Source: a virus
Taxonomy: Duplodnaviria > Caudoviricetes
Virus record (IMG/VR): IMGVR_UViG_3300022173_000136
Span: 1 to 50,704 of that record
Direction: 5' to 3' (one strand)
Length of the DNA stretch: 50,704 bases
Made by a program: the position numbers and the translations under genes. The stretch's first letter is position 1. Every line of letters begins with the position of its first letter. Shown piece after piece: positions 1 through 50,704 of the stretch. The notes under the pieces are model-generated. The model had not been told where the DNA came from. It saw nothing but the letters and a program-made list of their open reading frames with translations, and did not search any database.

Positions 1-3
1 AAG

Positions 4-129
4 ACAGCCCGCATAGCCCACGATGAACGCATGGTCAACCCGGCGAACTGCCGAACCTGTGGCTGCAATCTCTGGCAGCACAAGTGCGAAGAGAAGGACG
101 GAAAGTATACATGGACATGCAAATGCGGG
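4..129. repeat. Terminal direct repeat, left copy (126 bp); circular assembly overlap or genome terminal redundancy
   Basis: 4-129 is identical to 50577-50702 (offset 50573); the flanking bases differ. Confidence 0.95.
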
Positions 130-174
130 AAGTGTCAGAAGTTCGTGCCGAGCGGCCCGATGCCGAAGATGTGA
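31..174 (+). CDS. 47-aa Cys-rich putative zinc-finger microprotein (absent from ORF track)
   Basis: MVNPANCRTCGCNLWQHKCEEKDGKYTWTCKCGKCQKFVPSGPMPKM; ATG lies 6 nt after a -10-like CACGAT; the stop overlaps the next GTG start (ATGTGA). Confidence 0.6.
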   Translation: MVNPANCRTCGCNLWQHKCEEKDGKYTWTCKCGKCQKFVPSGPMPKM

Positions 175-395
175 ACGGCCGTCCGCCTTCTTGTGAGCCG
201 TCCGCCTTCTTGCCGGCGGAATCGTCGTCCGCCTTCTTCGTGGCGGCCGGCGGCCCGCGCGACATCATGGCCGACCTCCGGGCGATGCTGGCCGAGCACG
301 CGCGCCACGCCGAGCGCCGCCGCGACCCTCGGGAGCCCGCGCGCGCCGTGGTCGATGAGATCACCGCGCGGTTTCGCGCCGGATGGCGAGACTAA
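171..395 (+). CDS. Hypothetical protein
   Basis: GTG start coupled to the upstream stop; 3' part of ORF 84..395. Confidence 0.4.
   Translation: MNGRPPSCEPSAFLPAESSSAFFVAAGGPRDIMADLRAMLAEHARHAERRRDPREPARAVVDEITARFRAGWRD
178..239 (+). repeat. Three direct repeats with core CGTCCGCCTTCTT (iteron-like); two more copies at 50049 and 50356
   Basis: GCCGTCCGCCTTCTTG at 178-193 and 197-212; GTCGTCCGCCTTCTTC at 224-239. Confidence 0.8.
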
Positions 396-415
396 GGTGA
401 ATCCCTATTGAAATC

Positions 416-489
416 GGTACTTTGGTACTCTTGCACCGTGCGAGCGCGCCGCTTATTCTGGCCTTGGTCCTGAGGAGGGCTTACAACAA
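416..489 (+). promoter_or_regulatory. Sigma70-type early promoter with upstream GTAC-N4-GTAC site and RBS
   Basis: GTAC 417-420 and 425-428; TTGCAC 431-436, 17 nt, TATTCT 454-459; GAGGAGG 472-478; ATG 490. Confidence 0.75.
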
Positions 490-1329
490 ATGCTACGCAG
501 AAATGAACCACTGACCAACGACATGTTACGCGCCGCCGCGCCTTCTATCTTCGCGGTTGAGCCGTGGCAGAAGATGAGCGAGAAGTACGCGTTCATCCCC
601 ACCATTGATGTAGTCGAAGCGATGCGCGCCGAGGGTTTCCAACCCGTGATGGCGACGCAGGCACGGACGCGGATTCCTGGGAAGCAGGAGTTCACCAAGC
701 ACGTGATCCGGTTCCGCGACATGCGCGCCGGGAACACGCCGCAACTCACGCACCTGGGGCAAATCTTCCCCGAGCTGATCCTGACCAACTCGCACGACGG
801 AGCGAGCGCTTACAAGCTCGACGCTGGCCTCTTCCGGCTCGTATGCCTGAACGGGCTCACGGTCGCAGCGGGCAACGTGTCGCAGATCAACGTCACGCAC
901 CGAGGCGGGAACGACGCCGCCCACGCCGTCATCAATGCCAGCTTCCAAGTGGTCGAGGACTTCCCCGAGGTTATCGACAGCGTGGAGACGTTCGGAGCGT
1001 TGCAGCTCAGCGCGCCCGAGCAGAACGCATTTGCCGAGGCCGCTCTGATGTTGCGGTACGACACGCCCGAGGCCGCCGCCGTGCGCGCCGCCGACCTGCT
1101 CAGAGTGCGACGCAACGCCGACGCCGCGCCGACGCTCTGGAACACGTTCAACACCGTCCAAGAAAACATCATCGCGCCGCGCAAGGGCACGCGCGGAGTG
1201 TATGACCCGACGACCGCGCGCCGCAAGGTTGTACGCGGCGTGAACGGCATCAGCGAGGACGCCCGCATCAATAAGGCCCTGTGGCAGCTTACCGCACGCA
1301 TGGCCGAGATTCGCGGCACCACGAACTAG
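490..1329 (+). CDS. DUF932/DUF945-family protein (plasmid leading-region/phage early type)
   Basis: Motifs APSIFA..SEKYAFIPT..FTKHVIRFR..LILTNSHDG.SAY.L.AGLFRLVCLNGL..LWNTFN.VQEN..INKALW. Confidence 0.9.
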   Translation: MLRRNEPLTNDMLRAAAPSIFAVEPWQKMSEKYAFIPTIDVVEAMRAEGFQPVMATQARTRIPGKQEFTKHVIRFRDMRAGNTPQLTHLGQIFPELILTNSHDGASAYKLDAGLFRLVCLNGLTVAAGNVSQINVTHRGGNDAAHAVINASFQVVEDFPEVIDSVETFGALQLSAPEQNAFAEAALMLRYDTPEAAAVRAADLLRVRRNADAAPTLWNTFNTVQENIIAPRKGTRGVYDPTTARRKVVRGVNGISEDARINKALWQLTARMAEIRGTTN

Positions 1330-1334
1330 CCAGC

Positions 1335-1459
1335 GAGCGCGCGCGCCGGTTGCCATACCCACGCGCGCGCGTTCCTCGGGGAGTCGCGGCCCTTGCTGGA
1401 CTAGCGCGACAAAACACGACGCCCGCCCCGGACCTCCGCCGGAGCGGGCTAAGTGTTTT
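1335..1459. other. Three tandem stem-loops (terminator or structured RNA/ssDNA element)
   Basis: Arms 1335-1345/1364-1374, 1383-1388/1405-1410, 1411-1426/1444-1459. Confidence 0.55.
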
Positions 1460-1460
1460 T

Positions 1461-1545
1461 CTAAGGTGAATTGGTACTTTCGGCCCATTCCCCCATGCAA
1501 GACCGGCCCGCATAATAGAGCTGGCCCTGAGGAGGGCTTACTACT
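1461..1545 (+). promoter_or_regulatory. Second early promoter/RBS cassette, paralogous to 392-489
   Basis: CTAAGGTGAAT, GTAC-TTTC-GGCC 1474-1485, -10 CATAAT 1511-1516, and CCTGAGGAGGGCTTAC shared with the first cassette. Confidence 0.7.
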
Positions 1546-3839: not shown

Positions 3840-3899
3840 CGCTTACGGCTCGCCAGCCGAACGCCCTCGCCTACTACACCACTACAGAGGCCACCACCT

Positions 3900-3942
3900 A
3901 CGCCGACACCGTCCCCGGATTGTGTCGGCGTTCTTTTTTTTT
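3900..3942 (+). terminator. Rho-independent terminator ending the early operon
   Basis: ACGCCGACAC...GTGTCGGCGT stem followed by a T9 tract. Confidence 0.85.
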
Positions 3943-3981
3943 AACAACTTGCGTGGACAATTTGAGCTTCCCCCGCTCATG

Positions 3982-3997
3982 TGTTCCACGTGGAACA
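3982..3997. promoter_or_regulatory. parS: parS centromere-like site (ParB-binding palindrome)
   Basis: TGTTCCACGTGGAACA, a perfect 16-bp palindrome (18 bp with flanks) matching the conserved bacterial chromosomal parS consensus; intergenic. Confidence 0.85.
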
Positions 3998-4018
3998 CTC
4001 CCCACCACCGCACCACCG

Positions 4019-4048
4019 CCGGGAGCCGCGCGAGCGGCCCGGTTTTTT
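4019..4048 (+). terminator. Second Rho-independent terminator
   Basis: CCGGGAGCCGC-GCGA-GCGGCCCGG followed by T6. Confidence 0.75.
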
Positions 4049-4085
4049 CCGCGAAATCAGCGCGCTATTTCTATTCCTAGAAATC

Positions 4086-4100
4086 TGGTAGCATTCCCAC
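4086..4100 (+). promoter_or_regulatory. Extended -10 leaderless promoter of the packaging operon
   Basis: TG-G-TAGCAT (4089-4094), 6 nt, ATG 4101. Confidence 0.6.
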
Positions 4101-4292
4101 ATGACGGCCCATTGCTCAAAGTGCGGACGCGCGCGCCACGGGACCGGGGAGCCTTTGCCCTCGGCGAAGGGTTTCGCGCTGTTCACGTGTGACATGTACG
4201 GACACCGGACGCTATTCAAAGAGCAGCGCAACAAACGCGGCAAAGTTACTTGGAAGGTCGCGCTCGCGCCGCGCTTCAAAGTGGCAGCATAG
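4101..4292 (+). CDS. Small Cys/His zinc-binding protein
   Basis: CSKC...CDMYGH; leaderless start. Confidence 0.6.
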   Translation: MTAHCSKCGRARHGTGEPLPSAKGFALFTCDMYGHRTLFKEQRNKRGKVTWKVALAPRFKVAA

Positions 4293-4301: not shown

Positions 4302-4829
4302 ATGGCGACACTAGGACGCCCGCCGGGGTACCCGAAGACCGGCGGCAGGAAGAAAGGCACCATCAACAAGCCGCGCCCAGGCGTGGGCTACGTGCGCGAG
4401 CTGATGGAGTCTTTAGGCGTCAACACGTTTGAGAATCAAGTGAAGATCGCGCTTGGCAAGGTGCCCTGTACCCGATGCAAAGGGAAGGGAGACGCAACGC
4501 TCATAGTTGCCCGCAAGCCGCGCAAGACTGACCCGGAAGACGCGCCAGCAACCGAGCAGATAACGGTCACGTGTACGCACTGCCAAGGCTCGAAGCTGGA
4601 GCCCGTTTCCATCGGACTGAGTGCGAAGATTTACAGCGACCTGAACCAATACCAGCAGCCGCGCCTATCGCACGCGACCATTGACGGAGAGCTGAAAGCG
4701 CCCCCAGGCGAGACGCTCGCCGAGTTCCTTAGCAGGTCCGAAGCGTTGCGCGCCATGTATCCAGAAGCGAAGGCCGCCGCGCTCGCGCCGCGCGACACAA
4801 CGAAGCGACTACCGCAGAGTCAGCAATGA
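4302..4829 (+). CDS. terS: Terminase small subunit (GGRKKGTxNK type) with an inserted zinc finger
   Basis: N-terminal KTGGRKKGTINK; directly upstream of and coupled to TerL; CTRCKGKG and CTHCQG. Confidence 0.7.
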   Translation: MATLGRPPGYPKTGGRKKGTINKPRPGVGYVRELMESLGVNTFENQVKIALGKVPCTRCKGKGDATLIVARKPRKTDPEDAPATEQITVTCTHCQGSKLEPVSIGLSAKIYSDLNQYQQPRLSHATIDGELKAPPGETLAEFLSRSEALRAMYPEAKAAALAPRDTTKRLPQSQQ

Positions 4830-6553
4830 TACTGCCGTCTCAACTCCCAGGCCCGCAGGCCGCCGAGCTACAATTCGCGTTTGAAGATCATCCGACGTAC
4901 TGCCGAGAGTGTCTGAAGATCCGCGACCTTGGAGGCTCAAAGGTTCCGCTAGAGCTTGGAGCAGGACAGCGTAAGCTATCCGAAGAGATTGCACGACAGA
5001 AGGCCGCCAAGCGGCCCGTAAGGATCATCGTCCTAAAGACGCGCCGCTCTTGGTTCACAACGGGAGCATGCGCGGAGGCGTTTCGAGAGGTTCCACAGTG
5101 GCCCGGTAGACGAGGCGTTGTCATCGCCAACACGTACCGGCCCGCTGGCCTTGAGGCGTTCGACTACCTGAAGCAATTTCAGCAGAGCTACACGCCCTTA
5201 GAGAGACACGGCGCGCAGATCATCCTTCCGCAGCTCATCAAAGATACCGAGATGGAAATGAAGTGGGACAACGGTTCCACCATCGAAGTATTGAGCGCCG
5301 AGTCTGGAGAGCTTCGCGGAGGCGGGCGACAGGTCGCAGTGTTCGACGAGGTCGCATTCTGGCGTAACGCTGAGATGACGCTCACGGGCGCTATGAACAT
5401 GGTTCCGAAGGAGCCGGGGACTATGGTCCTTGTCCTCTCGACGGCGAACGGTGTCGGAGGCGAGTTCTATGACCTCTGGCAGCAGGCGAACGACCCGCAA
5501 TCAGACACGCTGTTTGTACCGTTGTTCTTCGGATGGCTGGAGCATGAAGCCTACCGCATGCCGGTTCCTGATCCGGCAGCCCTGCAAGCGACGCTAGATC
5601 CTGAAGAGCGCCGCCTTATGGAGATGCACAACGCCACGTTGGAGCAGCTCCAGTGGCGACGTGTGACGATTGCGACAGAGTGCCGGGGCAAGGTCGAGCT
5701 GTTTCACCAGGAATACCCGACGACAGCCGAGGAAGCCTTTATCAGCTCCGGCAGGCCCGCGCTAGACCTCGAAGCGTTGAGCCGTCACCCGATCATTGAG
5801 CCGATGAACGGCGACCTTAGACTCTTCGAGGAGCAGACGCGCCGCCGGTTGACTTGGGTACCGAACCCGCACGGAGCCTTAAGCGTGTGGCAGAAGCCGC
5901 AACAAGGCCGCCGCTATGTGATCGGCGCCGATCCGTCGCACGGTCGCGACGTGAGCGAGACGAAGCTCGGCAGGAATCCAGACTATGCGGTTGGATTCGT
6001 GGCGGACCAGGGGACCGGCGAGCAGGTCGCAATGCTTCGCGCGCGCCTGAGGCCGGGAGCCTTTGCCGAGTATCTCGCGTTGCTCGGCATCTACTACAAC
6101 TACGCCTACATGAACCCGGAAGCGAACGACACCGGATTCATTGACGCGCTCTTGAGGACGGGCTACCCGTTGGAGCTGTTCTATCAGAGGGAACGCGACC
6201 CGAGCGACCGCAACCCGGACCAGCCGGAGAAGCTCGGCTTCTATACGACGGCCCTCACGCGGGACTGGCTCATCAATGCAGCCGATGACGCTATCCGACA
6301 GATGACGATTACCATTCACTCGGCAGTAGTCAGAAGCGAATGTCAGACGTTCGTAGTGAAGCCGGACGGGAAGCGCGAGCACATGGACAACCACCACGAC
6401 GACACCGTCATAGCCTTAGGGCTTGCAGAGCTGGCGAGGCGACGCGCGCCGAGGCGACCGCCAACGCTCGGCGAGATCGGCGGTACTCGCGTCGTGATGT
6501 ATGGCGAGAAGGCACGCAAGGCCCGCAATGGCGACGACGAAGACGACGACTAA
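4826..6553 (+). CDS. terL: Terminase large subunit
   Basis: IIVLKTRR Walker-A region, VAVFDEVAFW Walker B, LSTANG motif III, QEYP, YVIGADPSHG and HDDTVIALGLA nuclease motifs. Confidence 0.95.
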   Translation: MILPSQLPGPQAAELQFAFEDHPTYCRECLKIRDLGGSKVPLELGAGQRKLSEEIARQKAAKRPVRIIVLKTRRSWFTTGACAEAFREVPQWPGRRGVVIANTYRPAGLEAFDYLKQFQQSYTPLERHGAQIILPQLIKDTEMEMKWDNGSTIEVLSAESGELRGGGRQVAVFDEVAFWRNAEMTLTGAMNMVPKEPGTMVLVLSTANGVGGEFYDLWQQANDPQSDTLFVPLFFGWLEHEAYRMPVPDPAALQATLDPEERRLMEMHNATLEQLQWRRVTIATECRGKVELFHQEYPTTAEEAFISSGRPALDLEALSRHPIIEPMNGDLRLFEEQTRRRLTWVPNPHGALSVWQKPQQGRRYVIGADPSHGRDVSETKLGRNPDYAVGFVADQGTGEQVAMLRARLRPGAFAEYLALLGIYYNYAYMNPEANDTGFIDALLRTGYPLELFYQRERDPSDRNPDQPEKLGFYTTALTRDWLINAADDAIRQMTITIHSAVVRSECQTFVVKPDGKREHMDNHHDDTVIALGLAELARRRAPRRPPTLGEIGGTRVVMYGEKARKARNGDDEDDD

Positions 6554-6773: not shown

Positions 6774-9023
6774 ATGGGCCAGCAAGTAACGAAGCAGATC
6801 ATCGTAAGCGACATCGAGCGCCGCCGGTTGCAGGGTCACATCGACGAGCAGGTCAGAGCCGCGAAGGACAACCACGAGACGAAATGCGAGCGGTTCCGCC
6901 GTTACTATCGCATGTGGCGCGGCCTGATTCAGACCAAGGGCAACCGCAAAGACGGCGCGCCGTTCCAATATCCAATGCTGAAGTGGATCGTCTTCGGACA
7001 ATGGGCGCGCGTGATGCAGGCCCTACTCGGCGACGACAAAGAAATCATCGCGCGACCCTCTGGACCGATCGAACAAGGCAAGGCGAAGAAGGTCGGCGCG
7101 TACATGACGTGGCGATTCTTCGACTACATGGAAGCCACGATTGCACTATCGACGTGGGTTTTCCGCGCGCTGATCTTCGGACGGGCTCACGCCGAAATCA
7201 TCTACGAGATGGAGACGTACTGGGAGCGCGGAAACATCGACGAAGTAGACATGGAGCAGCTCGAAGAGAACCGAGCTGGCGACATGGCCCTCGAATACAT
7301 CGACAACAAAGACGGAACCGTCGATTACGAGTGTTTGGTCTATGACGGCCCGCGAATCCGCCCGCTGTGGCCCTCGCAATTGATCGTTCCCGCGCAAGAT
7401 AGCGTTGTTGACGACGAAGACTTCGAGTGGAAATGCCGCCGCGACCGCGTCACGCCTGAGCAACTGCTCGTCGAAGAGCGCCGAGGCCGCGCCTATGGCG
7501 TCAAAGACAACTGGAACAAGATCACAGCGAGCGCCAACGAACGACAAGAGCGTGACTACCTGTGGGACCAGGAGCAGAACGACCGCGACGAGGCCGAAGG
7601 CGTGCAACATGCGTCTTTGATGGGCAATCGCGACAGCTTGGAGCGCTGGAGATGGTACGGAAAGTGGCGTTTCCTGAAGGGTAAAGCCGATGGAAGCAAG
7701 ACGAACCTCGACCGGCGGGAAGATTACGAGCGCGAAGTCGTTGTAACGTACCTTCCCGACGTTCAGCTCATCATCGGTATCGAAGACTTGCGCGCCAAGT
7801 ACCCGCGCATGCGGAAGCGTGACCCGATTCTGAGCTTGTCGAGCGTGAAAGACGGCTCGTATTGGTCGCCAGGGCTCGGCGAGCTTGTCGAGGACCTCCA
7901 GAACGAAGCGAGCGTCAATTATGCTGTGTTCCGCAAGGCTGGCATGCTCTCTATCGGCCCGATTTTGTTCTTCAAGCCGTCGAGCGGCTTCGATCCCGAC
8001 ACCTTCGAGTACAAACCAGGGCAGGCGATCCCTTCGGAAGACCCGGAAGGCGTGCGCGCTATCGAGATGAAGGCGAACCTCGAATATCCCCAGTTCATGC
8101 AGCAGGTCTTGAAGGCCCTCGCGGAGCTGGTAACGGGCGTGAGCGACCAAACACTCGGCAGAGTGAGCGACAGACCGAACGCACCGCAGACCGCGAGCGG
8201 TCAGGCGATGCTCATTCAGGAAGGAAACACGCGCGTATCGCTCGACATGAACATGTTGCGCGAAGACATCGGCAAGGCCATCAATTACGTGTGGCAGCTC
8301 GACCGCGAGTACGCTCCGCCCGAGGTATTCTTCCAAGTCACCGGCGACGACGCGCCGTTCGACGTGAATCACGGCTTCGGGAAGATGACCGCCGAGGAGC
8401 GGAATCACCCGTTCAGCTTCAGCGTGAAGTTTGCCACGTCGTTCTGGAGCCGCGAAGCGAAGAAGCAAGCGCTGATCCAGATTTACGGCCTGAGCATGCA
8501 GAATCCCATCGTGCAGACGAACCCGCGCGCGCTGTGGACTCTGCTCAATCGCATTTGGGAAGCCTACGGGGAGATGGACTTCAAGGACATCATTCCCGAG
8601 CCGCCGAGCCCGGAGGTTCCGAAGACTCCGAAGCAGGAATGGGCGCTCATGCTGAAGGGCGACGAAGTCGAAGTCAACCCGATGGACGAGGACGACGTTC
8701 ACTTGATCGACCACCGGCGACGGCTGCAAGCGTGCATGGATCAAACGCCGGAACGTCGCGATAGAGCGATGGAAGCCGGAGTCGTCGAGCACATCATGAT
8801 GCACGAACGCCAGAAGCGCCAGAAGATGCTATTGCAGAAGGTCGCGGCGCTCGCGATTCAGCAGATGCAGGCTCAAGGCGTGCTACCGCCGGGAGGACCC
8901 GGCGGAATGATGCAGCCCTCGCCGATGGGCGACGGACTGAACCCCGCAGCTCCGCCGGTTCCGGCAGCTCCGGGACCTGAAGCGCCGGTCGGACCCGCTG
9001 ACCAGGGCCTCGTGCAGCAATGA
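6774..9023 (+). CDS. Portal protein
   Basis: 749 aa after TerL; YWSPGLGELVEDLQ, ELVTGVSDQTLG, TASG motifs; Q/P-rich C-terminal extension typical of podovirus-like portals. Confidence 0.85.
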   Translation: MGQQVTKQIIVSDIERRRLQGHIDEQVRAAKDNHETKCERFRRYYRMWRGLIQTKGNRKDGAPFQYPMLKWIVFGQWARVMQALLGDDKEIIARPSGPIEQGKAKKVGAYMTWRFFDYMEATIALSTWVFRALIFGRAHAEIIYEMETYWERGNIDEVDMEQLEENRAGDMALEYIDNKDGTVDYECLVYDGPRIRPLWPSQLIVPAQDSVVDDEDFEWKCRRDRVTPEQLLVEERRGRAYGVKDNWNKITASANERQERDYLWDQEQNDRDEAEGVQHASLMGNRDSLERWRWYGKWRFLKGKADGSKTNLDRREDYEREVVVTYLPDVQLIIGIEDLRAKYPRMRKRDPILSLSSVKDGSYWSPGLGELVEDLQNEASVNYAVFRKAGMLSIGPILFFKPSSGFDPDTFEYKPGQAIPSEDPEGVRAIEMKANLEYPQFMQQVLKALAELVTGVSDQTLGRVSDRPNAPQTASGQAMLIQEGNTRVSLDMNMLREDIGKAINYVWQLDREYAPPEVFFQVTGDDAPFDVNHGFGKMTAEERNHPFSFSVKFATSFWSREAKKQALIQIYGLSMQNPIVQTNPRALWTLLNRIWEAYGEMDFKDIIPEPPSPEVPKTPKQEWALMLKGDEVEVNPMDEDDVHLIDHRRRLQACMDQTPERRDRAMEAGVVEHIMMHERQKRQKMLLQKVAALAIQQMQAQGVLPPGGPGGMMQPSPMGDGLNPAAPPVPAAPGPEAPVGPADQGLVQQ

Positions 9024-40963: not shown

Positions 40964-41003
40964 GCTTTCGACTTTACGAAGCCGGTTCGTTTTGTGGAAT
41001 AGA

Positions 41004-42090: not shown

Positions 42091-42095
42091 GAGCC

Positions 42096-42184: not shown

Positions 42185-42373
42185 ATGAAAGTAGAACTTC
42201 ACTCAAACGGAACGCTCCAGATTCACTTGACCGCGCAAACGCCGGTCGAAGACGCCTACTTGAAGACCATGCGCGACGCTGCCGAGAAGGGAACCGCGGT
42301 TCGCTTGACCCAAGCGCCGTTCGGCGGCCTCGCTGACAGCCCGATATCTGTCGTGGTTTCGATGGAGGTATAG
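42185..42373 (+). CDS. Hypothetical protein
   Basis: Leaderless start MKVELHSNG. Confidence 0.65.
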   Translation: MKVELHSNGTLQIHLTAQTPVEDAYLKTMRDAAEKGTAVRLTQAPFGGLADSPISVVVSMEV

Positions 42374-42380
42374 TAAGCAC

Positions 42381-43286
42381 ATGAGCAAAATCCCGATTCT
42401 CGAACGCCTTCAATTCCCGATTTACAACGACGCCGCTCACTATACCGCTGTGACCGGCCGGCATGCACCTTGGGACCCGACGAAACCCGTCCGCCACTGG
42501 GAAGCCCTCGGCGAACCCGGCCCGTACAACACCATCCCGAACGATCAGGTCGGCCTCGGTGTGTTCGACGGCGACGCGACGCTCGTCAACATCCCTTGCG
42601 TGCCCTACACCGTCTCGTGGGCTCCGCCGTCCGTCGATGTCACGGTGAACGGCCAGCCGCGCGCCGACGTGCTCTTCAGCACGCGCGAAGAGGCAATCGC
42701 CATCATGGAGGAGATGAACGTCGCGGCGAAGGGGACCTCGAACCCTGCAATCGTGATGTCGTCGCTCCGCGAGAACCAAGGCTTGTTCTTGTTCCGCTAC
42801 GTCTACGGCTCCGCCGAGAAGCGCCGTTGTTGGGAGTTCTTCGACATGGCCGGAACCGAGTACAACGCGGGCGAGCGGATCGCGCATCGCAACCGCGCCG
42901 GCTCCGCCATCCTCCGCGCCACGTGGAACGCCACGCTGAACCGCGCCGAAGACAAGGCTCTTCCGCCGGGAGTCTGGACCTACGCGAGCGATACGAAGGT
43001 CTGGTACTTCAAGCTCGAAGCCGGCCTTGAGTCGAACGAACCTTTGCCGGCGAAGGCTGGATCGGTTCGGCCCGCGGTCAAGCTGTTACCCGGCGAGTCT
43101 CTCGTGTGGGCGCCGTCGACCATGCCCGGAGTGCTTGAGCCGGTGGTCCAAGGTCAAGCCGACATCGAAAGCAAGTACGGCCCGCTCTCGGCTCTCGACA
43201 AGGAGCTGTTGCGGATCGGCCAGGAAACCGCCGCGCGCGTGGCGAACATCGAAGCGATGCTCAAGCGTGCGACTGGCGTACAGTAA
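42381..43286 (+). CDS. Hypothetical protein (301 aa)
   Basis: GGAGGT RBS; typical codon bias; followed by a hairpin. Confidence 0.75.
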   Translation: MSKIPILERLQFPIYNDAAHYTAVTGRHAPWDPTKPVRHWEALGEPGPYNTIPNDQVGLGVFDGDATLVNIPCVPYTVSWAPPSVDVTVNGQPRADVLFSTREEAIAIMEEMNVAAKGTSNPAIVMSSLRENQGLFLFRYVYGSAEKRRCWEFFDMAGTEYNAGERIAHRNRAGSAILRATWNATLNRAEDKALPPGVWTYASDTKVWYFKLEAGLESNEPLPAKAGSVRPAVKLLPGESLVWAPSTMPGVLEPVVQGQADIESKYGPLSALDKELLRIGQETAARVANIEAMLKRATGVQ

Positions 43287-43312
43287 TTCAACCAACGCAA
43301 GGTAGTAGACGC

Positions 43313-43341
43313 GGCCGCCGGGGTAGTGAACCTCGGCGGCC
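43313..43341. terminator. Hairpin between convergent genes (probable bidirectional terminator)
   Basis: GGCCGCCGGGGT-AGTGA-ACCTCGGCGGCC. Confidence 0.65.
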
Positions 43342-43350
43342 GTCGGTGTT

Positions 43351-44076
43351 TTATGCGCGCCAGTAAGACGGATCGAAGACGGCGTCCACGTCCTTGTAGG
43401 CTCCGTGATTGTCGACGACCGCGGTCATGTCGCGAACGGCCACGCGGAGCGGCTTCGGGGATTCCGGCCCGACCAGCCCGAGCGCCGGCGTGAACCAGTT
43501 CAGCGCGCGGTACGCGAACTTCAGGACGCTGTCACGCTTCGAGTGCATGACGGTGAACTTGCCCGCCTTGTACACGGCATTCTGGAACTCGCCGCTGAGT
43601 GCGAGCGAGTCGTAATCGACGGCCGGCGCGGTAAGGATCAGGCAATCGACGGAAGGCCCTTCCTTCAGCGCGCACAGGGCGACGCGAGCGCCCAGGCTAT
43701 GAGTCTCGACCGTAACCTTGCAGCCGGCGAGCTTCAGGTAGTCGATCAGCTCCGCCAGCTCCAAGCCGGCACGCTTCGCGCGAGCGACTGCCATCGAGAA
43801 GCCGACGCGCGCCCAGGACCCAGGCCAGAAGAAGCCAATGCGTGCGCTGTCGGTCATGCCTTTGCCGTCGAGCTGAGTAGAAAGGGTGTTGTAGGCGTTG
43901 GCCGCGCCCTCAAACTCGTTGCGGTATCCGTGGACGAAGATGTCGACCTGCCGGCCGGCAAGCATGTCCTGTAGCTGGCCCTTTGTGATCGCCTCGCCGG
44001 TGTCGCTGATACGCAACTGCAACGGGGCTAGGAAGGTCGTCGAAGTGAAGTTCTGGCGGCAGGAGGCATGTATCAT
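43351..44076 (-). CDS. Alpha/beta hydrolase (DUF900 esterase/lipase family)
   Basis: FVHGYRN, FFWPGS, nucleophile elbow THSLG, APAVD, SKRDSVL, catalytic H in NHGAY. Confidence 0.85.
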   Translation of the reverse strand: MIHASCRQNFTSTTFLAPLQLRISDTGEAITKGQLQDMLAGRQVDIFVHGYRNEFEGAANAYNTLSTQLDGKGMTDSARIGFFWPGSWARVGFSMAVARAKRAGLELAELIDYLKLAGCKVTVETHSLGARVALCALKEGPSVDCLILTAPAVDYDSLALSGEFQNAVYKAGKFTVMHSKRDSVLKFAYRALNWFTPALGLVGPESPKPLRVAVRDMTAVVDNHGAYKDVDAVFDPSYWRA

Positions 44077-44079
44077 GCC

Positions 44080-44553
44080 CTACAGTCTACCGCGGTCCCC
44101 GGCTTCTTTGCTGTGCTTCAGGGCGGAGTTAATTTGCTCTTGCGTTGGGAAGGAGCGACTCTGGAACCAGCTTTCGACGAGCTTCGCGAAGCGGTCTATC
44201 CACGGTGCGCCAGGGCCGCCAATCTGTCGGTACTTCGACGCGCAGCTCAGGAACTCGTAGATGGTCACGGCGCGCACGAAGTACTCGGCCGGGTCCCAGG
44301 AGAGCTTGAAGGCTTCTTGCGTCACGGCCGATAGCGCGCCGAGGATGAAGAACACGGCGACCTTTCGCATGATGCCTACGCAGAGCTTCCGATTCTCGTA
44401 TGATCCTTGCTGCAATGCGAGTCCGGCTCCGAACAGTAGGTCGGTGAACATGAGGAACACCATCGGCCCAACTGCCGGCGGAATCGCGGCCCACTTCATG
44501 AGAAACGTCGCAACTATGGATGTCCAGAACCGCTCCCAGGTAAATTCGCTCAT
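44080..44553 (-). CDS. Phage holin (holin_4_1/toxin-secretion type)
   Basis: TM segments; D...G..A..S..L..G..RK and YEFLS motif; leaderless TACAAT, 6 nt, ATG. Confidence 0.75.
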   Translation of the reverse strand: MSEFTWERFWTSIVATFLMKWAAIPPAVGPMVFLMFTDLLFGAGLALQQGSYENRKLCVGIMRKVAVFFILGALSAVTQEAFKLSWDPAEYFVRAVTIYEFLSCASKYRQIGGPGAPWIDRFAKLVESWFQSRSFPTQEQINSALKHSKEAGDRGRL

Positions 44554-44576
44554 GGGGAAATTGTACCCCGTTGGCG

Positions 44577-44966
44577 CTACCGTCCGGCAAAGAATGCAGC
44601 CTGAAGCCGGCCGATGATCGCCTCTACGTCGATTCCCCAGTAAGCGCCGAATCGTTTCTTTAGCGATTCTTGAGAGAAGAGGCCGTCTTGGTGGTGTTGC
44701 CTGCATAGCGGTAGTCCTCGCAAGTTTGGGGCCTTTGCCGCTGAGTTGCCGCCGTAGTGAGCGAACTCGCTCACGCCGACGCGCGCCGGCAGCCCCTCCC
44801 GATATTCTAGGAAATAACAGGCCGCGCAGGGATAGCCCTTGACGAACTCCATGAAGTCGAGCCCGTCTTGGTCGACATTGCGGGTCCGCCGGCTGAACGG
44901 GCGGAGGGCGGAAGGCGGCCGCTTCTTGTGCTTCTTGGCGGCCGCTCGCGCCTTCGCTGACCTCAT
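44577..44966 (-). CDS. HNH-like nuclease (DUF968/Ref-like)
   Basis: PCAAC..AH..LPLCRQHH..FGAYWGID. Confidence 0.7.
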   Translation of the reverse strand: MRSAKARAAAKKHKKRPPSALRPFSRRTRNVDQDGLDFMEFVKGYPCAACYFLEYREGLPARVGVSEFAHYGGNSAAKAPNLRGLPLCRQHHQDGLFSQESLKKRFGAYWGIDVEAIIGRLQAAFFAGR

Positions 44967-45178
44967 TCGGCCAGCTCCCAGTAGGACTCGTGGAACGCGC
45001 GAGCGCGGTCGGTGCCGTCGATGTCGACCATGACGAGCCAGGGCGTATTGCAGCGGGCGACGAACGTCCCGCGGATCGTGCGCGGATCGTGAGGAATGCG
45101 GGTCACGGGGTCGATGAAGTGCTCGGCCAGCTCGCGTATTCCAGACAAGCTCAACTGAACGCGCGCGCCGTAGGTCAT
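44963..45178 (-). CDS. Hypothetical protein
   Basis: ATGA coupling at both ends. Confidence 0.6.
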   Translation of the reverse strand: MTYGARVQLSLSGIRELAEHFIDPVTRIPHDPRTIRGTFVARCNTPWLVMVDIDGTDRARAFHESYWELAE

Positions 45179-45405
45179 CGCGCCGATTCTCTCACGCCGA
45201 CCTTGCGGCCGCTGAAGACCTTCCCGTCGAGCATGGTGATAGCCTTCTTGCCTTGTTCCTTCGGCACGTTGCAGAACGCATACGGCCCGCCGGTTTCCGG
45301 CCGGATGAAGGTCAAGCTCATCACAGTGATGCCCCACTTCTCCAGCCACTCACGAAGGCGCTCTTCCGTCGCGCCGTGGTCGATGTTACCGATGAACAGT
45401 CTCAC
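45175..45405 (-). CDS. RNA-recognition-motif (RRM) RNA-binding protein
   Basis: RNP2 LFIGNI, RNP1-like GPYAFCNV, AITMLDGKVFSGRKVGVRESAR; own -10 TACGAT and GGAGAGG RBS; GTG start. Confidence 0.85.
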   Translation of the reverse strand: MRLFIGNIDHGATEERLREWLEKWGITVMSLTFIRPETGGPYAFCNVPKEQGKKAITMLDGKVFSGRKVGVRESAR

Positions 45406-45558
45406 TCTGTAGCCCTCTCCAGATATTCCACAATCGTACCGCGGCTCCCCACTTGCGCCACGCGATGACCCTCGCCGGCAGCTCGCCGGATTCCGACGCG
45501 ATGACCGCGGCCCGCGCGTCGGCCAGAATCGTGAGCATCATCGCCCGCGGCATGCTCC

Positions 45559-45900
45559 TCAAGCGAGTTTTCGCTTGGCGAGCGTCTTCTCCATCTCCCG
45601 TACCCATGCGCGATGTTCCTCCATCTCGGCTTCGGTCGGCGGCGTCCCGAGGTCGAAGACCGGCTCTTCGTCGACGCCGTTGTGCTTCCGCACGAGTCGA
45701 TGAATGTCCGCCGGCGCCGGCCGCTCTGTCTGCTCGACAAGCCACTCGTCGATGACCATAGCCGCGACAACGTCGTTCTTCGCGCGCATGAGCGCGCTCG
45801 TAATCTCGGCGAAGTACTCCTCGCCGTCGGCCTGAACGAAGTACTTGCAGAAGCGCAGCCGCCGCGCCTGTGTGTTTGCGAACCGCCGGTCGACGCTCAT
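45559..45900 (-). CDS. Replication-module protein (possible helicase-loader inhibitor-like)
   Basis: Follows the initiator-like gene; W....ERPAPADIH motif. Confidence 0.5.
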   Translation of the reverse strand: MSVDRRFANTQARRLRFCKYFVQADGEEYFAEITSALMRAKNDVVAAMVIDEWLVEQTERPAPADIHRLVRKHNGVDEEPVFDLGTPPTEAEMEEHRAWVREMEKTLAKRKLA

Positions 45901-46385
45901 GCCGTCCGCCAGTCCACGGCGCGCCCGGTGCGCCTGTATAGCTCGATGGCACGGTCAAGCCGCTGTCGCTCTTCCCAGGCCGCAGCGTCGCGGGCTTCGG
46001 CTTCGGGGCTTGGCGGTTTCGGGGAAGGTGTTTTCGTAGAAATAAACCCCGAAGGGATAATACAAGGACGCGCGGCCGAAGACATCTCATTTTGAGGTAT
46101 CACTTCGTAGCGGGCGGAGGTCGGCCCGCGTCGGATAACTCGAATCAGGCCAGCGCCTTTGAGTTGGGAGATCCAGCGCGCTATCGTGGCGCGCGACTTC
46201 TTGAACTGTGCCGCGAAATAGGCGACGGAACAGAAGCAGCCAGCCGGCCGCGCAGCCATCGAACGGATGCGCGCGAGCAGGTCGGATGGTCCGAACCGCT
46301 TAGGCTTCTTTGGTGGACGCCACTCGGCGACTTCTGAGGCGGGGAAAAGTTCTCTTTGGGCGGGGACGACTTCGAGCGTCTTCAA
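45897..46385 (-). CDS. Winged-HTH protein, putative replication initiator
   Basis: CFCSVAYFAAQFKKSRATIARWISQLKGAGLIRVIRR..SARY; TTG start with GAGGAG RBS. Confidence 0.7.
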   Translation of the reverse strand: MKTLEVVPAQRELFPASEVAEWRPPKKPKRFGPSDLLARIRSMAARPAGCFCSVAYFAAQFKKSRATIARWISQLKGAGLIRVIRRGPTSARYEVIPQNEMSSAARPCIIPSGFISTKTPSPKPPSPEAEARDAAAWEERQRLDRAIELYRRTGRAVDWRTA

Positions 46386-46500
46386 CGGTGCAGCTCCTCT
46401 ACAGATTGAAACGCGGGCGGCCGTCTGTAGTCAGCAGCCCGCGCCTCAGGATTCCTCGATTGCGGCGAGGGTCCGGTATGCCTACCGAACAGGGATGATC

Positions 46501-46839
46501 TTAACCCAGGCGGCCCGTCTCGCGCAAGTACTCGGATCGACGCAGCTCCCACGCCTTCGGCGGCTTGTGCTGATGTAGGCGAGGTTGGCCGCCGCGGTTG
46601 CGCTTCTGTCGTTGCGGGGTGTCGGGCGGGGCGACTGGATTCTTGTAAACGTCTTTGCCGGCGAGCAGGTCGAGCGCTTGCCGAACGGTGTAGCGCTTCC
46701 AAACGTCACGGTCTGGATCGTGGATGTAGATTTTCTCCGCGTCGACGCGGAGGCGGAGGCCGTGCGCCTTGCAGTGAGCGAGTAGCTCACGTGCAAGGTC
46801 CACGGTGAACGGCAGCGACGGGGGAGGATGTCGCAGCAT
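46501..46839 (-). CDS. Hypothetical protein
   Basis: Operon ORF. Confidence 0.55.
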   Translation of the reverse strand: MLRHPPPSLPFTVDLARELLAHCKAHGLRLRVDAEKIYIHDPDRDVWKRYTVRQALDLLAGKDVYKNPVAPPDTPQRQKRNRGGQPRLHQHKPPKAWELRRSEYLRETGRLG

Positions 46840-46846
46840 AACGGCC

Positions 46847-47320
46847 CTAGCTCATGTCGACCAGCTCGCCTTGCTTCGGCTCGCTGGAGTCTTCGCTTTC
46901 GGTTTCGATCTTGTCGTATTCGATGTGCAGGTCGCCTTGCGCGCGCGACGTGGTATCGGCGTACTTCTCGGCGATGGCAGCGATGCCCGGTAGGTGCGTC
47001 GTATACTGACCGCGCAGCTCGAACTTCGGCCGCTTCCCTTCCGACTCAATTCGGATGACCTTGAATTGCTCGAACAGGCCAGACCCCAGGTTGAAGGTCT
47101 TGCCGCCGGCCTCGAACGTCATCGTGTGCGCGGCCATGCCGCCTTGGAGCTGAACGGACTCTTGTCCTTCCGCTGGAGCGGTCCAGCCGAGCGCGTTCGC
47201 GACGCGCGCCGTCCACTTCATCGTGAAGTTCAGCGAGACAGTCTTCGCGCCCTTCTTCTTGTCTAGGGCCATGTGGCCGGAGTTGAGATACGCCCCTTCG
47301 AGCGTTATCGTCTTTGGCAT
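46847..47320 (-). CDS. Hypothetical protein
   Basis: AAGGA RBS, strong codon bias. Confidence 0.7.
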   Translation of the reverse strand: MPKTITLEGAYLNSGHMALDKKKGAKTVSLNFTMKWTARVANALGWTAPAEGQESVQLQGGMAAHTMTFEAGGKTFNLGSGLFEQFKVIRIESEGKRPKFELRGQYTTHLPGIAAIAEKYADTTSRAQGDLHIEYDKIETESEDSSEPKQGELVDMS

Positions 47321-47335
47321 CGGGTGATGTTCCTT

Positions 47336-47824
47336 CTATCGTATTTTCCGTGCGAGTCCGCTCTTCGCGTACTTCTCGCGGAATCCCTCTATTGTAGGCT
47401 CGAAGTCAACCGTTGCAACCCACACCATCGCGCCGCGCGCGCGTTCGGTGGTCGCCCACTGCAATTGCTCCGGTTTCGGCTTCCCATGCAGGCTCTTGAA
47501 CTCAACCCATAGGACCTCGGCGTCCTGATGCCCGGTCATGTTCGTGTAGCGAATGAACAGGTCGTCGGCCATCCCAGGCTCACCGAAACCCTTGCCGCGC
47601 GCGTTGAGCAGCTTCGCGACGGCCGGTATGAGTAGGCCAGCCTTCGCCAGCGCCGCGCGGATCGCGCCCACGGTCGCCCGGTCGCTGACCGGGTCCGTCC
47701 GAAGATGCCGCCAGTCGTCGAGGACGAGCAGCTCGGTACATGTGGCTTGAATGCTCGCCTCGCTCGGCGTGTAGACTCCCGGCTTGCGTGTCTTGATGAA
47801 GTACTTCTCGCGCGGAATGCTCAT
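47336..47824 (-). CDS. VRR-NUC (PD-(D/E)xK) nuclease
   Basis: [36 protein letters not shown]. Confidence 0.8.
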
Positions 47825-48105
47825 AGTAGCTTGTGAATCCCCATCGCGACGTAGCCAGGGCGGAGGCCGTCGGGGAAGTGGGTAATGTACGTGACCTCGA
47901 CGCGAACTTTGGTTCCAAGGTATTTGCTCGCTCTTCCGTCCGCTGGAGATTCCCACTCTTGCAGAACCAGGATGTCGCCGACCTTGAACCCGCGGTCGTC
48001 GCGGCGAATCTCGAACGTCTTCGTGCCGTTCTTGACGGCAGCAAAGTACTCCGGCCAGCATTTGAGCGTGTGCGTCACAGGAGCCTCATTTGTTATTTTT
48101 TCCAT
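47821..48105 (-). CDS. ASCH/PUA-like DUF3850 protein
   Basis: [51 protein letters not shown]. Confidence 0.9.
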
Positions 48106-48344
48106 GATGGGATGAACTTCGGGGTGCCGCCGGAAACGAACGCTTCCGCGTCGTCGGGCTCGGCGAAGAGTGTTGTTTGCTCAGGCTTCGGTGGCTTCGG
48201 CTTCGCCGGCGGCCGCTTCGCGCGGTGATTGTCGCGACCAGGGCAGTCGATGAAGTGATTCTCGCCGGCAGCGTTCAGCGGAACCGCCTTGTTGTTGGCG
48301 TTGCGGGTCCACGTGATCGGCGCGCCGCAGCTCCTACATTGCAT
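48093..48344 (-). CDS. Small zinc-binding protein
   Basis: [16 protein letters not shown]. Confidence 0.7.
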
Positions 48345-48663
48345 GGCGCAGGTTCTCCAACTTGTAATGCTTTACGTTGTAGTTGTTCGCGTCGCCGACA
48401 TGGATCGCCGGCTTGTCGTCGTCCCAGTGGACGGACGCGCGGCCGCTATTGCGAAGCTCCCATATCTTGCCGATGCGCGAGATGTCGCCGCGGTAACAAA
48501 CGCGGTCGCCCAGGCGGAACTTCTTCGAGGACTGCACACACGTATTGAGCAGTAGCGAGCGCCGGCTTCCGCTCCAGCCGCAGCAGTGGAGGCAGCGCCA
48601 GACGGTGTCGCCGTCGCTGTCGACGCCATCGCGCCGAGGAACGCAGCGTTCCGGTTTGTTCAT
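48334..48663 (-). CDS. Hypothetical protein
   Basis: ATGA coupling; SH3-like C-terminal part. Confidence 0.55.
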   Translation of the reverse strand: MNKPERCVPRRDGVDSDGDTVWRCLHCCGWSGSRRSLLLNTCVQSSKKFRLGDRVCYRGDISRIGKIWELRNSGRASVHWDDDKPAIHVGDANNYNVKHYKLENLRHAM

Positions 48664-48866
48664 ATCAGCGATACCTCCGCTTGCATAGGTCGCTTGATCT
48701 TCTGGCCTTCTTTTGTGAATGTATAGCTCACCGAGAAGACCTTGCCGGCCGCGAGCACGTCGTCGACGTAGAAACTAACATGGTCCCCGACGTGTGGCAG
48801 CGACTCTAGCCACTCGTCGAAGTAGACAGAGGTCTTCCGGGTTTCGTCTTTGAAGCGGACCTTCAT
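48660..48866 (-). CDS. Hypothetical protein
   Basis: ATGA coupling. Confidence 0.6.
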   Translation of the reverse strand: MKVRFKDETRKTSVYFDEWLESLPHVGDHVSFYVDDVLAAGKVFSVSYTFTKEGQKIKRPMQAEVSLI

Positions 48867-49075
48867 CCGTTCGCCTCAAGGCAGCCAGCGCAAAGCACGA
48901 TGCCGTCGAGCGTCATGATGCAGCAGCCCTCGCAGAACATCTTGTTGCAGCCCTCGCACTTGTGCAGCTCTTCGTCTTCGCTCGTGGCTCGGCAGGTCTT
49001 CACGGCACACGGAGTATACTCCGGCATGTCGTGTTCTTCGTCGAAGCTGTAGTCGCGGCCGTCGTCAATCATCAC
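48863..49075 (-). CDS. Cys-rich zinc-finger protein
   Basis: C....C..CEGC....CEGC..CAGC. Confidence 0.65.
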   Translation of the reverse strand: MMIDDGRDYSFDEEHDMPEYTPCAVKTCRATSEDEELHKCEGCNKMFCEGCCIMTLDGIVLCAGCLEANG

Positions 49076-49317
49076 AATACGCCTCGTTGTGCGAGCATCT
49101 TCGTCCGCTCGGCGGCCGCGCGTTCAGGCCAGCTACCGAAGGCAGGATCGCCATAGATGCCGCGAAGGATTGACTCGACCTCGCGCCGGTGTTCTGCGAT
49201 CGCTTGGCCCTTGCGCGCGGCTTCCTTCGGTATGCCGGCTTCGTTGCAAAGGTGCATCGCGTCAATCATGCCGCGGGTCATGAAGATGCGTTCGGCTTGC
49301 TGTGTGAGTGAGTCCAT
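49072..49317 (-). CDS. Hypothetical protein, first gene of the middle operon
   Basis: Leaderless TTGCGC-17-TACTGT-6-ATG. Confidence 0.7.
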   Translation of the reverse strand: MDSLTQQAERIFMTRGMIDAMHLCNEAGIPKEAARKGQAIAEHRREVESILRGIYGDPAFGSWPERAAAERTKMLAQRGVL

Positions 49318-49366
49318 GCAGAAACAGTAAACCGCCGGCTTGCTTCGCGCAATAGTACCGGCGGTT
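49318..49366 (-). promoter_or_regulatory. Leaderless sigma70 promoter with a GTAC site, enclosed in an inverted repeat
   Basis: GTAC 49355-49358, TTGCGC, 17 nt, TACTGT 49324-49329; AACCGCCGG (49330-38)/CCGGCGGTT (49358-66). Confidence 0.75.
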
Positions 49367-49435
49367 CATTTTGTGCGTCGGGGCGGTTAAGCCTCGTGCC
49401 GTTGCCCGACAAGTCGACGAGACACGACCGGCTCG

Positions 49436-49918
49436 TTAGAGAGGCAGCTCGATAATCTGAATGGGAAGCTCGCCGATGCCGGCCGTTTCCAGCCAGGAGA
49501 TAAGTTCCTTCTCGTCGTCATCGGTGAGACGCAGGCAGCCGTATGTCGGGCGGAACCAGCCGGCAGCGTTGAGCGCGCCGCCGTGGATCAGGATATTGTA
49601 GCGGTCGCCGTCGCCGTCTTTGTTCTTCGGGGACATCGCAATCAGCGCGTCGCCGGAAACCGCGGTCAGCAGAATGCGCTTGTGCGGTCCATAGACTCGC
49701 CCAGGCCCGCTCGCGGGAACGATGCGGCCCTTCCATTCGCCGGCGGGAATGTCGCCGAACGGCCGCAGCGGGTTTCGCTCGGGATTGCCGGCTTCCTTCG
49801 CGCGCGTGTTGTCGCTCTTGCCATAGCAAGGGGCTCGCCATGCGATGTTTGCGCCGTCGGTGAGTATGATGACGCCGGGATTCGTGCGGTCTTTGTGGAG
49901 AAATACGGTAAGTTTCAT
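49436..49918 (-). CDS. YkuD-family L,D-transpeptidase-fold protein (candidate endolysin)
   Basis: GDIPAG.W, ILIHGG..PTYGCLRL catalytic His/Cys motif. Confidence 0.85.
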   Translation of the reverse strand: MKLTVFLHKDRTNPGVIILTDGANIAWRAPCYGKSDNTRAKEAGNPERNPLRPFGDIPAGEWKGRIVPASGPGRVYGPHKRILLTAVSGDALIAMSPKNKDGDGDRYNILIHGGALNAAGWFRPTYGCLRLTDDDEKELISWLETAGIGELPIQIIELPL

Positions 49919-50068
49919 CGGGTGTTGGTTCCTTCCGGTCGGCGTCCTTCGCTGCAAGCTCGCGAGCATTCCCTTGTAAGGCGCGGAGCGCGAGAGCGAC
50001 CACGTAGCGACGCCGGCCGCAAGAGAGGCGAACGCGCCAGGAAAAGCGCGTCCGCCTTCTTTACCGCG

Positions 50069-50311
50069 CTACGGTTGCGGCGTGGGGTCGGGCGTCGGCG
50101 TGGGGCCGGGAGCCGAAGGGGTGTTGGTCACGACGGCCGCGGCCAGCGCGTCGGTGGAGAGCCGCAGGCGGTCGACAAACGCCTGAAGAGCTACCGGGTC
50201 ATTTTTGGACGCCTCGACTTCGGCGGCCAGTGCGCGCATGAGCTGAATCGCGGACGAATCCGCTTGCTCGTTGCGCTCGATCTCTGCTTGCAATTGGGAC
50301 AGGTCTAACAT
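50069..50311 (-). CDS. Small coiled-coil protein with a Pro/Thr-rich tail
   Basis: AAGGAG RBS; TAA-ATG adjacency to the upstream gene. Confidence 0.7.
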   Translation of the reverse strand: MLDLSQLQAEIERNEQADSSAIQLMRALAAEVEASKNDPVALQAFVDRLRLSTDALAAAVVTNTPSAPGPTPTPDPTPQP

Positions 50312-50485
50312 TTAGTGCTTCTCCTTAAGGTCGGCGACCACTTCCGCCAGTTTGTCGTCCGCCTTCTTGAGTCGCTCCGTGAGTTGGTCGATTGCCGCTT
50401 GCGTCGTGCCATCGAGATAGTCGAGCAGACGGTCAATCCGGTTGCGGTCTTCGGGTGCGATGGAGATTACGAACAACTTGAACAT
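50312..50485 (-). CDS. 57-aa coiled-coil protein (absent from ORF track)
   Basis: MFKLFVISIAPEDRNRIDRLLDYLDGTTQAAIDQLTERLKKADDKLAEVVADLKEKH; GGAAGGA RBS. Confidence 0.65.
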   Translation of the reverse strand: MFKLFVISIAPEDRNRIDRLLDYLDGTTQAAIDQLTERLKKADDKLAEVVADLKEKH

Positions 50486-50523
50486 GTCGGGTGCAGTCCT
50501 TCCGTTGTGTTGAACACTCTTGC

Positions 50524-50597
50524 ATCGTATCAGGCTTTAACCCTACGAAAAATAGTACCGATGGCCCATTTTCAAAACAGCCCGCATAGCCCACGAT
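50524..50597. promoter_or_regulatory. Divergent promoter pair sharing one GTAC-N4-GGCC site
   Basis: Leftward -10 TACGAT (50524-29) and rightward -10 CACGAT (50592-97); the site at 50555-50566 begins 37 nt upstream of each. Confidence 0.7.
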
Positions 50598-50702
50598 GAA
50601 CGCATGGTCAACCCGGCGAACTGCCGAACCTGTGGCTGCAATCTCTGGCAGCACAAGTGCGAAGAGAAGGACGGAAAGTATACATGGACATGCAAATGCG
50701 GG
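50577..50702. repeat. Terminal direct repeat, right copy
   Basis: Identical to 4-129. Confidence 0.95.
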
Positions 50703-50704
50703 CT

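Follow-up and report, generated by a model that had tools for sequence, protein, structure and literature searches.

A single chromosomal-type parS site in an integrase-less phage genome of a temperate clade: possible partition by host ParB

ParB is a cytidine triphosphate (CTP)-dependent clamp that loads at parS sites and recruits ParA and SMC. P1 and N15 are extrachromosomal prophages with partition systems of their own. As summarised in PMC7157519, about 20% of cluster A mycobacteriophages have parABS instead of an integrase and are maintained as one- or two-copy episomes. Phage phi29, as outlined in PMC2731898, uses parS sites together with the host Spo0J (ParB) for segregation and has Spo0A boxes at its promoters. 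Here we analyse the complete IMG/VR virus record IMGVR_UViG_3300022173_000136 (Duplodnaviria; Caudoviricetes), a single contig of 50,704 bases that is called the window in the following. It carries one perfect parS site of the chromosomal type at positions 3982-3997 and no recognisable integrase, ParA or ParB of the helix-turn-helix (HTH) type. An initial annotation of this DNA had proposed a temperate life based on cis-elements only, namely a parS, iterons and a shared operator read by a host transcription factor. The proposal is supported in part: the parS site is real, of host type and recurrent, and the clade is temperate, but the operator with its host-factor switch and the iterons could not be substantiated. 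We tentatively propose, as a possibility that falls short of being probable, that this integrase-less member of a temperate clade uses host ParB via its single parS for partition while it is unintegrated.

The window resembles phi29, as the latter is portrayed in PMC2731898, in that a phage without ParA and ParB carries a host-type parS and is thought to ride host segregation, host factors taking the place of phage genes. However, phi29 has five sites on a linear, protein-primed genome of 19 kb, infects a sporulating Bacillus host and employs the sites for spore entry, whereas the window has one site on a circularly assembled genome of ~50.6 kb, a winged helix-turn-helix (wHTH) initiator and a non-sporulating acidobacterial host lineage. 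The combination of several parS sites with host-regulator boxes at early and late promoters that marks phi29 is not found in the window, which has one site and a promoter box that is -10-like. In cluster A mycobacteriophages, integrase-bearing members alternate with integrase-less ones that carry partition elements and a replicon (PMC7157519, as far as described there), which is the likeness of this group to the clade studied here. Its members, like P1 and N15, encode their own ParA and ParB and read a private parS, whereas the window has a cis site only, of host chromosome type; it has neither the ParA and ParB of a plasmid prophage nor the integrase of an integrating temperate phage. With the chromosomal parS/ParB/SMC system the window shares the identical 16-bp palindrome, and the host family has such sites beside parB, but the site of the window is viral, single and not located beside parAB or oriC. 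The parS of phi29 and the parABS prophages are already known, and what appears to be new is a bare host-type parS that recurs in phages. Full-text literature searches, with supplements outside their scope, returned no report of such a site as a common phage feature or as alternating with integrases, which is not a proof that none exists.

The palindrome TGTTCCACGTGGAACA (3982-3997, no strand assigned) is the single exact match in the window and agrees with the consensus TGTTNCACGTGNAACA at 16/16 palindrome positions, which confirms the perfect site of the initial annotation as exact, single and of host chromosome type. No second parS-like site with up to three mismatches is present in the window; 9 of 100 shuffled sequences gave one at this threshold. 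The site lies in an intergenic gap of 354 bp (3840-4193) between two terminator-like hairpins. The first (3900-3942, + strand), just upstream of parS, has a 10+3-pair stem followed by U9 and ends the rightward early operon; the second (4018-4048, +), with a T-run, is located just downstream.

These surroundings are also compatible with a role of the palindrome that is the phage's own and merely resembles parS, be it an operator of late or packaging genes, a small-RNA hairpin, or a packaging signal by the gene in the small-terminase position. The site precedes the first packaging-operon genes by ~100-200 bp, the region 3890-4050 folds far better than shuffled sequences (z = -5.7 for the whole stretch) with the palindrome as a hairpin between the two terminators, and one relative (G006, see below) shows that members of the clade can bring their own ParB-like binder. 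We nevertheless consider such a role improbable: the match to the host consensus is complete, G006 and a second relative (G007) have one-mismatch versions of this consensus at other map positions away from the terminase, the window encodes neither a canonical ParB nor another candidate binder, and no Rfam family is matched. As a separate observation, a small RNA might be encoded by the segment 3946-4048, in which the parS palindrome forms the central hairpin; the segment has no Rfam match.

The absence of an integrase, a ParA and an HTH-type ParB is borne out by profile searches. Six-frame searches of the whole genome gave no match to tyrosine or serine recombinases (PF00589, PF00239; PF07508 and transposases were not part of the six-frame search), to HTH_3 (PF01381), to the ParA families PF13614 and PF01656, to ParB_N (PF02195) or to the family-A polymerase PolA (PF00476). 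Pfam, PHROG and NCBIfam searches of the called open reading frames (ORFs) likewise found none of these recombinase, HTH_3, ParA, ParB_N and PolA families, and NCBIfam recognised no lysogeny or partition family among 48 non-structural ORFs. No hidden integrase, repressor or ParA was detected in the ORFs by Pfam and PHROG; what did surface was a ddrB-ParB domain (PF18763) in a protein of 1604 amino acids (aa), so that the earlier statement that ParB is missing holds for HTH-type proteins and not for the ParB superfamily. Searches for hidden regulators by phmmer against PDB (three ORFs) gave nothing usable, and an Atlas search with the 301-aa and 57-aa ORFs gave no usable lead. A repressor of the HTH_3 type was not recognisable in two proviruses of the clade (G008 and G009, the two that were checked) either, and its absence from the window therefore says little.

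Relatives were identified with the large terminase (TerL; 4826-6553, +; phrog_2, 3.3e-22), for which hundreds of metagenomic homologues were found; many are encoded on 46-50 kb contigs, and a few on longer ones (69-570 kb) that bear the name Bryobacteraceae or Solibacteraceae. The closest TerL relatives show 72% and 67% identity. One relative is located inside a 569-kb contig with integrases adjoining. Another, in a contig of 68.8 kb, matches the IMG/VR provirus G009, whose integrase would fall just before the start of that contig; the ~27 kb on the other side presumably are host flank, as judged by synteny with the G009 provirus. The clade is temperate, as evident from the proviruses G008 and G009 and from the integrated copies in Bryobacteraceae and Solibacteraceae contigs. 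Virion genes of the window are 30-75% identical to those of its four nearest complete relatives, and the early genes are almost all unrelated. We assume that the window represents a complete tailed-phage genome from a temperate clade infecting Bryobacteraceae-like Acidobacteriota, the relatives alone pointing to its own host, and that it may itself lead a temperate life. In the genomes that host relatives (G001-G004), TGTTTCACGTGAAACA, CGTTCCACGTGGAACA and similar sites are found ~1 kb upstream of the chromosomal parB; the sites of this host family include C/G variants like that of the window, and the window parS matches such variants upstream of parB in Bryobacteraceae and Solibacteraceae genomes. 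A contig of a metagenome-assembled genome that appeared closest to the window (G005:C282) was rejected, having only TerL in common with it and no parS-like site.

Within the clade, parS tracks the loss of the integrase. All relatives with at least 90% completeness were scored, 14 genomes including the window (G000). None of the nine genomes with a tyrosine integrase (PF00589) has a parS at up to one mismatch, whereas three of the five genomes without PF00589 do (G000, G006 and G007; Fisher one-sided p ~0.03 for 14 genomes). The site of the window has no mismatch, those of G006 (TGTTCCACATGGAACA) and G007 (CGTTTCACGTGAAACA) have one each, and the latter two are the nearest complete integrase-less relatives of the window. 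All three sites are intergenic, 0.8, 5.2 and 12.5 kb upstream of TerL; they differ in sequence variant, and the surrounding early genes share almost no homology. Conservation in relatives, which the initial annotation had suggested as a check, was found for parS in the two nearest integrase-less genomes, but not for the 13-mer repeats described below. The same annotation had named integrated relatives as a refutation. Such relatives exist; however, they are relatives that have an integrase and lack parS, and so they fit the idea rather than refute it. In Caulobacter an extra parS in mid-chromosome is disfavoured, as reported in the part of PMC5815017 concerned with it, and a lack of parS in integrating relatives would follow from this. 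Either partition by host ParB or a hijack of host ParB during lytic growth explains why integrating relatives lack the site.

If host ParB is used for partition, the single perfect parS, between two terminators ahead of the packaging operon, would load host ParB onto the phage DNA while the genome remains unintegrated in a dividing population, be it as a plasmid-like prophage or in a carrier state. Both daughter cells would then receive the phage genome through ParA and SMC of the host, and the wHTH protein of the phage would initiate replication by the host replisome. The initiator-like gene (45897-46385, -; 162 aa) is matched by HTH_36 (1.1e-5), by phrog_270 'replication initiation protein' (6.6e-8) and by O-like and DnaD-like PHROGs, so that the single wHTH gene of the initial annotation is real. 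A second gene (39824-40534, -; 236 aa) probably encodes a single-strand DNA-binding protein. It has no family match and a homologue in G007 at 58% identity; its C-terminus, read by eye, ends in DDDVPF, which we take to be the acidic tail typical of single-strand-binding proteins. An initiator and a single-strand-binding-like gene but no polymerase are what host-dependent temperate replicons have, and this supports partition by host ParB.

G006 differs from parABS prophages in that it combines a ParB-like protein and parS with no ParA (PF13614 and PF01656, six-frame search). It encodes an orphan ParB-like protein of 524 aa that shares 35-42% identity with host ParB in its CTPase and HTH parts. 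The gene spans the contig origin (L132 1-814 plus the contig end); by eye the protein shows a GxRRxRA-type motif, an HTH like that of chromosomal ParB, a long Cys-rich C-terminus and no ParA-binding motif. Orphan ParB-like genes without this motif are described as common on prophages and plasmids in the portion of PMC12704722 that covers them. The ends of G007 (45765-46028 and 1-100) hold ~20 tandem copies of an 18-bp unit, which could be an origin-like array or the cause of an assembly break.

The site is not confined to this clade. Exact sites of the window type were present on at least 120 IMG/VR contigs, compared with 3 for the reversed palindrome and 12 for inside-out half-sites, and a T-rich parS variant was present on at least 119 contigs, compared with 21 for its inside-out control; the counts for both parS types are lower bounds, and some of the contigs may be plasmids or host fragments. 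The 120 listed loci (L148-L267) form 93 sequence clusters with G+C contents of 0.23-0.71. Gene content was sampled in 50 of the longer contigs, chosen from the first 80 of these 120 loci; 15 of the 50 are at least 90% complete genomes unrelated to the clade. ParB_N was found in 2 of the 50 contigs; among the 15 complete genomes a tyrosine integrase was found in none and ParB_N in one, figures that describe parS-bearing genomes only. These numbers bear on the assumption that parS is present by chance and has no function. A given 16-mer, with 1/4^16 per position, is indeed expected a few times over very many scanned windows. Per genome, however, the expectation is ~1e-5 for the exact site and ~0.008 (per 50 kb) at up to one mismatch, yet three related genomes have the site, in each case between genes, and the control palindromes are rarer in IMG/VR. 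Mere chance is therefore very improbable in our view. Some IMG/VR contigs (for example L324 and L363, among loci L304-L422) have 3-5 parS sites within ~1 kb, like phi29. Placement of parS between genes across IMG/VR was also considered; by length of the spanning ORF, about one third of the sites rank in the lowest decile, but the control sets, which are small, gave a similar picture, and the measure was not decisive.

The breadth of the site across viral contigs (at least 10-40 times commoner than the controls, and spread over 93 clusters and a G+C range of 0.23-0.71) suggests a general infection trick. The phage could then be strictly lytic, perhaps formerly temperate with a lost integrase, and parS would be used during infection with nothing inherited: replicating copies would titrate host ParB, and with it ParA, SMC or regulators of division, blocking host segregation or division or organising the phage DNA. 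We rate this explanation as rather unlikely, though to be taken seriously. It is in agreement with the gene content of the 15 unrelated complete genomes, of which none has an integrase, 14 lack ParB_N and three have their own PolA, and with phi29, the one known case, which is a lytic phage. On the other hand, the clade is otherwise temperate and parS tracks integrase loss within it, G006, like plasmid prophages, encodes an HTH-bearing ParB-like protein of its own alongside parS, the window has no PolA and relies on the replisome of its host, and one site per genome would sequester little ParB before a high copy number is reached.

Several results weigh against partition by host ParB, and the first three of them speak for the lytic explanation. 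Searches of the window with Pfam, PHROG, NCBIfam, PDB and Atlas and modelling with AlphaFold2 (AF2) revealed no lysogeny repressor, nor did profile and structure searches of the ORFs reveal antirepressor, toxin-antitoxin or multimer-resolution functions. Plasmid-borne parS is toxic or lethal in Caulobacter, where ParB controls MipZ (PMC5815017, in the part dealing with that species), so that borrowing host ParB need not be harmless. A family-A polymerase is present in 3 of the 15 unrelated complete parS genomes. Many virulent phages encode such a polymerase of their own. The window has one parS, compared with five in phi29, and its host is deduced from relatives only. Two complete integrase-less relatives (G018 and G029) have no parS, and 40 of 40 further relatives, 31 of them fragments, were negative for the site. 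In a TerL tree the three parS genomes are spread over two of three subclades within a single well-supported clade, so that the association of parS with the missing integrase represents at most two or three independent events. Binding of ParB at 3982-3997 is presumed from the match to the host consensus, and the episomal or carrier state is likewise a presumption, which counts against partition by host ParB.

In a wider sense, a bare host-type parS might be a widespread strategy of non-integrating phages for loading the host ParB-CTP clamp, and within the present clade the 16-bp site might replace the integrase for inheriting a dormant genome, partition being reduced to a cis element. This generalisation is put forward as a conjecture about which we have more doubt than belief. 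If it is true, 16 bp would suffice for lysogeny-like persistence, genes for partition or integration being dispensable, and tools that assign lifestyle from integrase or ParAB genes would miscall such phages as lytic. Host ParB would be a common phage dependency or target, and a first handle on the persistence of phages in slow-growing soil Acidobacteriota would be available. The idea leads to a testable rule: non-integrating phages should tolerate parS, whereas selection should remove it from integrating phages.

The ddrB-ParB domain was considered as a binder of parS. It comprises residues 542-677 (DNA 34421-34828) of the 1604-aa protein that ends the virion module (32798-37612, +) and was detected with 54.7 bits at a cut-off of 27.6 (PF18763, 1.4e-14). 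Of 15 clade genomes, 9 have the domain, irrespective of whether an integrase or a parS is present, and homologous domains occur in frames of 914-4763 aa in eight relatives; it is found in 0 of the 15 unrelated parS-bearing genomes and has no recognised parS-reading HTH. Since its occurrence is independent of parS, the domain is a clade trait and not the partner of parS, and the link was rejected. As in other giant phage proteins with a ddrB-type ParB domain, the domain lies within a very large protein of the virion module, and the 1604-aa protein is probably an injected multi-domain protein.

The 13-mer CGTCCGCCTTCTT is present in five exact copies, all on the + strand, and since the contig ends overlap all five lie within ~760 bp around the divergent early region. 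Three copies are tandem (180-238; starts 180, 199 and 226, spacing 19 and 27), the fourth (50049-50061) is located between two leftward early genes, and the fifth (50356-50368) lies inside the first leftward gene, where it codes for KKAD on the - strand. The tandem copies are not one coding repeat, since 19 cannot be divided by three. At up to two mismatches 13 matches were found compared with 2.5 expected, and 0 of 100 shuffles reached 13. The co-oriented repeats at the divergent junction are therefore real, but they are at most candidate iterons. Iteron replicons have at least three direct repeats at the initiator gene with AT-rich DNA or DnaA boxes; here the 13-mers lie ~4 kb from the initiator gene, a repeat array looked for at that gene was not found and the origin not located, and of five DnaA-box-like sites with one mismatch (2.6 expected) none is at the 13-mers. 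Nor are the 13-mers conserved in relatives, whose own repeat arrays differ and are not comparable. Most likely a DNA-binding protein of the phage would recognise the 13-mers in the early control region, where they would act as operators or iterons. As a means of finding relatives the 13-mer was rejected: tandem pairs occurred in 49 metagenome contigs with spacings that are all multiples of three, which identifies them as coding lysine/alanine-type repeats and not as relatives.

The initial annotation had also described a position-fixed GTAC at eight promoters. Bare GTAC is not enriched between genes (11 of 130 copies are intergenic, in 8.7% non-coding sequence), but the longer box GGTAC[TG]NT is (7 of 10 copies), and the 5 matches to CGGTACTATT at up to one mismatch all fall between genes; promoter-like places number seven rather than eight. 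The box CGGTACTATT is found at 49351-49360 (-) and in the divergent early control region (50486-50603, no strand assigned) at 50551-50560 (-), and further -10-like boxes are located at 45432-45441 (-), 42142-42151 (+), 19985-19994 (+), 415-432 (+) and 1473-1480 (+). TAnnnT is the pattern of -10 hexamers. As the core TACTAT/TACGAT/TACTTT fits this pattern, the box, including the GGTACTAT boxes, looks by sequence like the -10 part of phage promoters rather than an operator. A shared operator, or a host transcription factor as lytic switch, is not supported, since the box resembles a -10 element and nothing implicates a host factor. At two promoter-like places (408-432 and 50549-50572), TTGAAA is followed after 12 bases by TAC(T)NT, with a weaker third case by eye at 50510-50533; this gap is five bases shorter than the usual sigma-70 spacer.

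The record is rated 100% complete by CheckV. Positions 1-129 recur at 50574-50702 (no strand assigned) with 99% identity, an assembly overlap that points to a circular assembly with a real length of ~50.6 kb. The G+C content is 0.60-0.66. Megablast of the whole genome against cultured phages gave no match, TerL and portal are at most 30% identical to those of cultured phages, and Rfam and tRNA searches of the window found none. The rightward arm (31-37612) consists of a short early operon followed by packaging and virion genes, among which portal (6774-9023), major head protein (12779-13696) and a tail-fibre N-terminus (within 19847-20932) were assigned by profile. The leftward arm (37596-50485) contains early genes and is interrupted by a small rightward island (42185-43286, +) of two genes (62 and 301 aa) opposing the leftward early genes, a moron or lysogeny-type island by its place in the gene map; searches of its genes against families, PDB and Atlas gave no lead. 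A guess by eye that the 57-aa product of the first leftward gene is a ribbon-helix-helix protein found no support; single-sequence AF2 predicts one long helix (predicted local distance difference test, pLDDT, 76).

The first large gene of the rightward early operon encodes a DUF932 protein (490-1329, +; PF06067, 1.3e-41; phrog_12094, 7e-74) and lies 2.65 kb from parS. A DUF932 homologue (L226 8992-9771, 44% identity) is separated by 1.75 kb from an exact parS in the complete genome of an unrelated phage that encodes its own PolA; this is one case among at least 120 loci and possibly a coincidence. Among the leftward genes are a Mu Gam-like or Gp157-like protein (38619-39446, -; phrog_253, 3.9e-10; PF05565, 1.1e-5) and a nuclease or Holliday-junction-resolvase-like protein (47336-48061, -; phrog_5702, 4.6e-6) with homologues in G006, G007 and G008. 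Other non-structural ORFs were assigned by profile as HNH/Ref-like, DUF900 hydrolase, holin-like and a weak YkuD-like protein. A 76-aa RRM_1 RNA-binding protein is encoded among the early genes at 45175-45405 (Pfam, 1.8e-7); an NCBIfam match to an 'RNA-binding regulator' (7.5e-8) is probably the same ORF. A stand-alone DUF3850/ASCH protein is encoded at 47821-48105; fusions of a ParB CTPase with DUF3850 that adjoin parA in prophages are mentioned in the relevant part of a 2025 survey (PMC12704722). The moron-like gene at 37596-38309, which opposes the end of the tail genes, encodes a malectin-domain protein with a signal-peptide-like start. Two virion-module genes contain internal repeats, namely three copies of ~148 nt (13957-14434) and six copies of a 46-nt unit (18735-19755).

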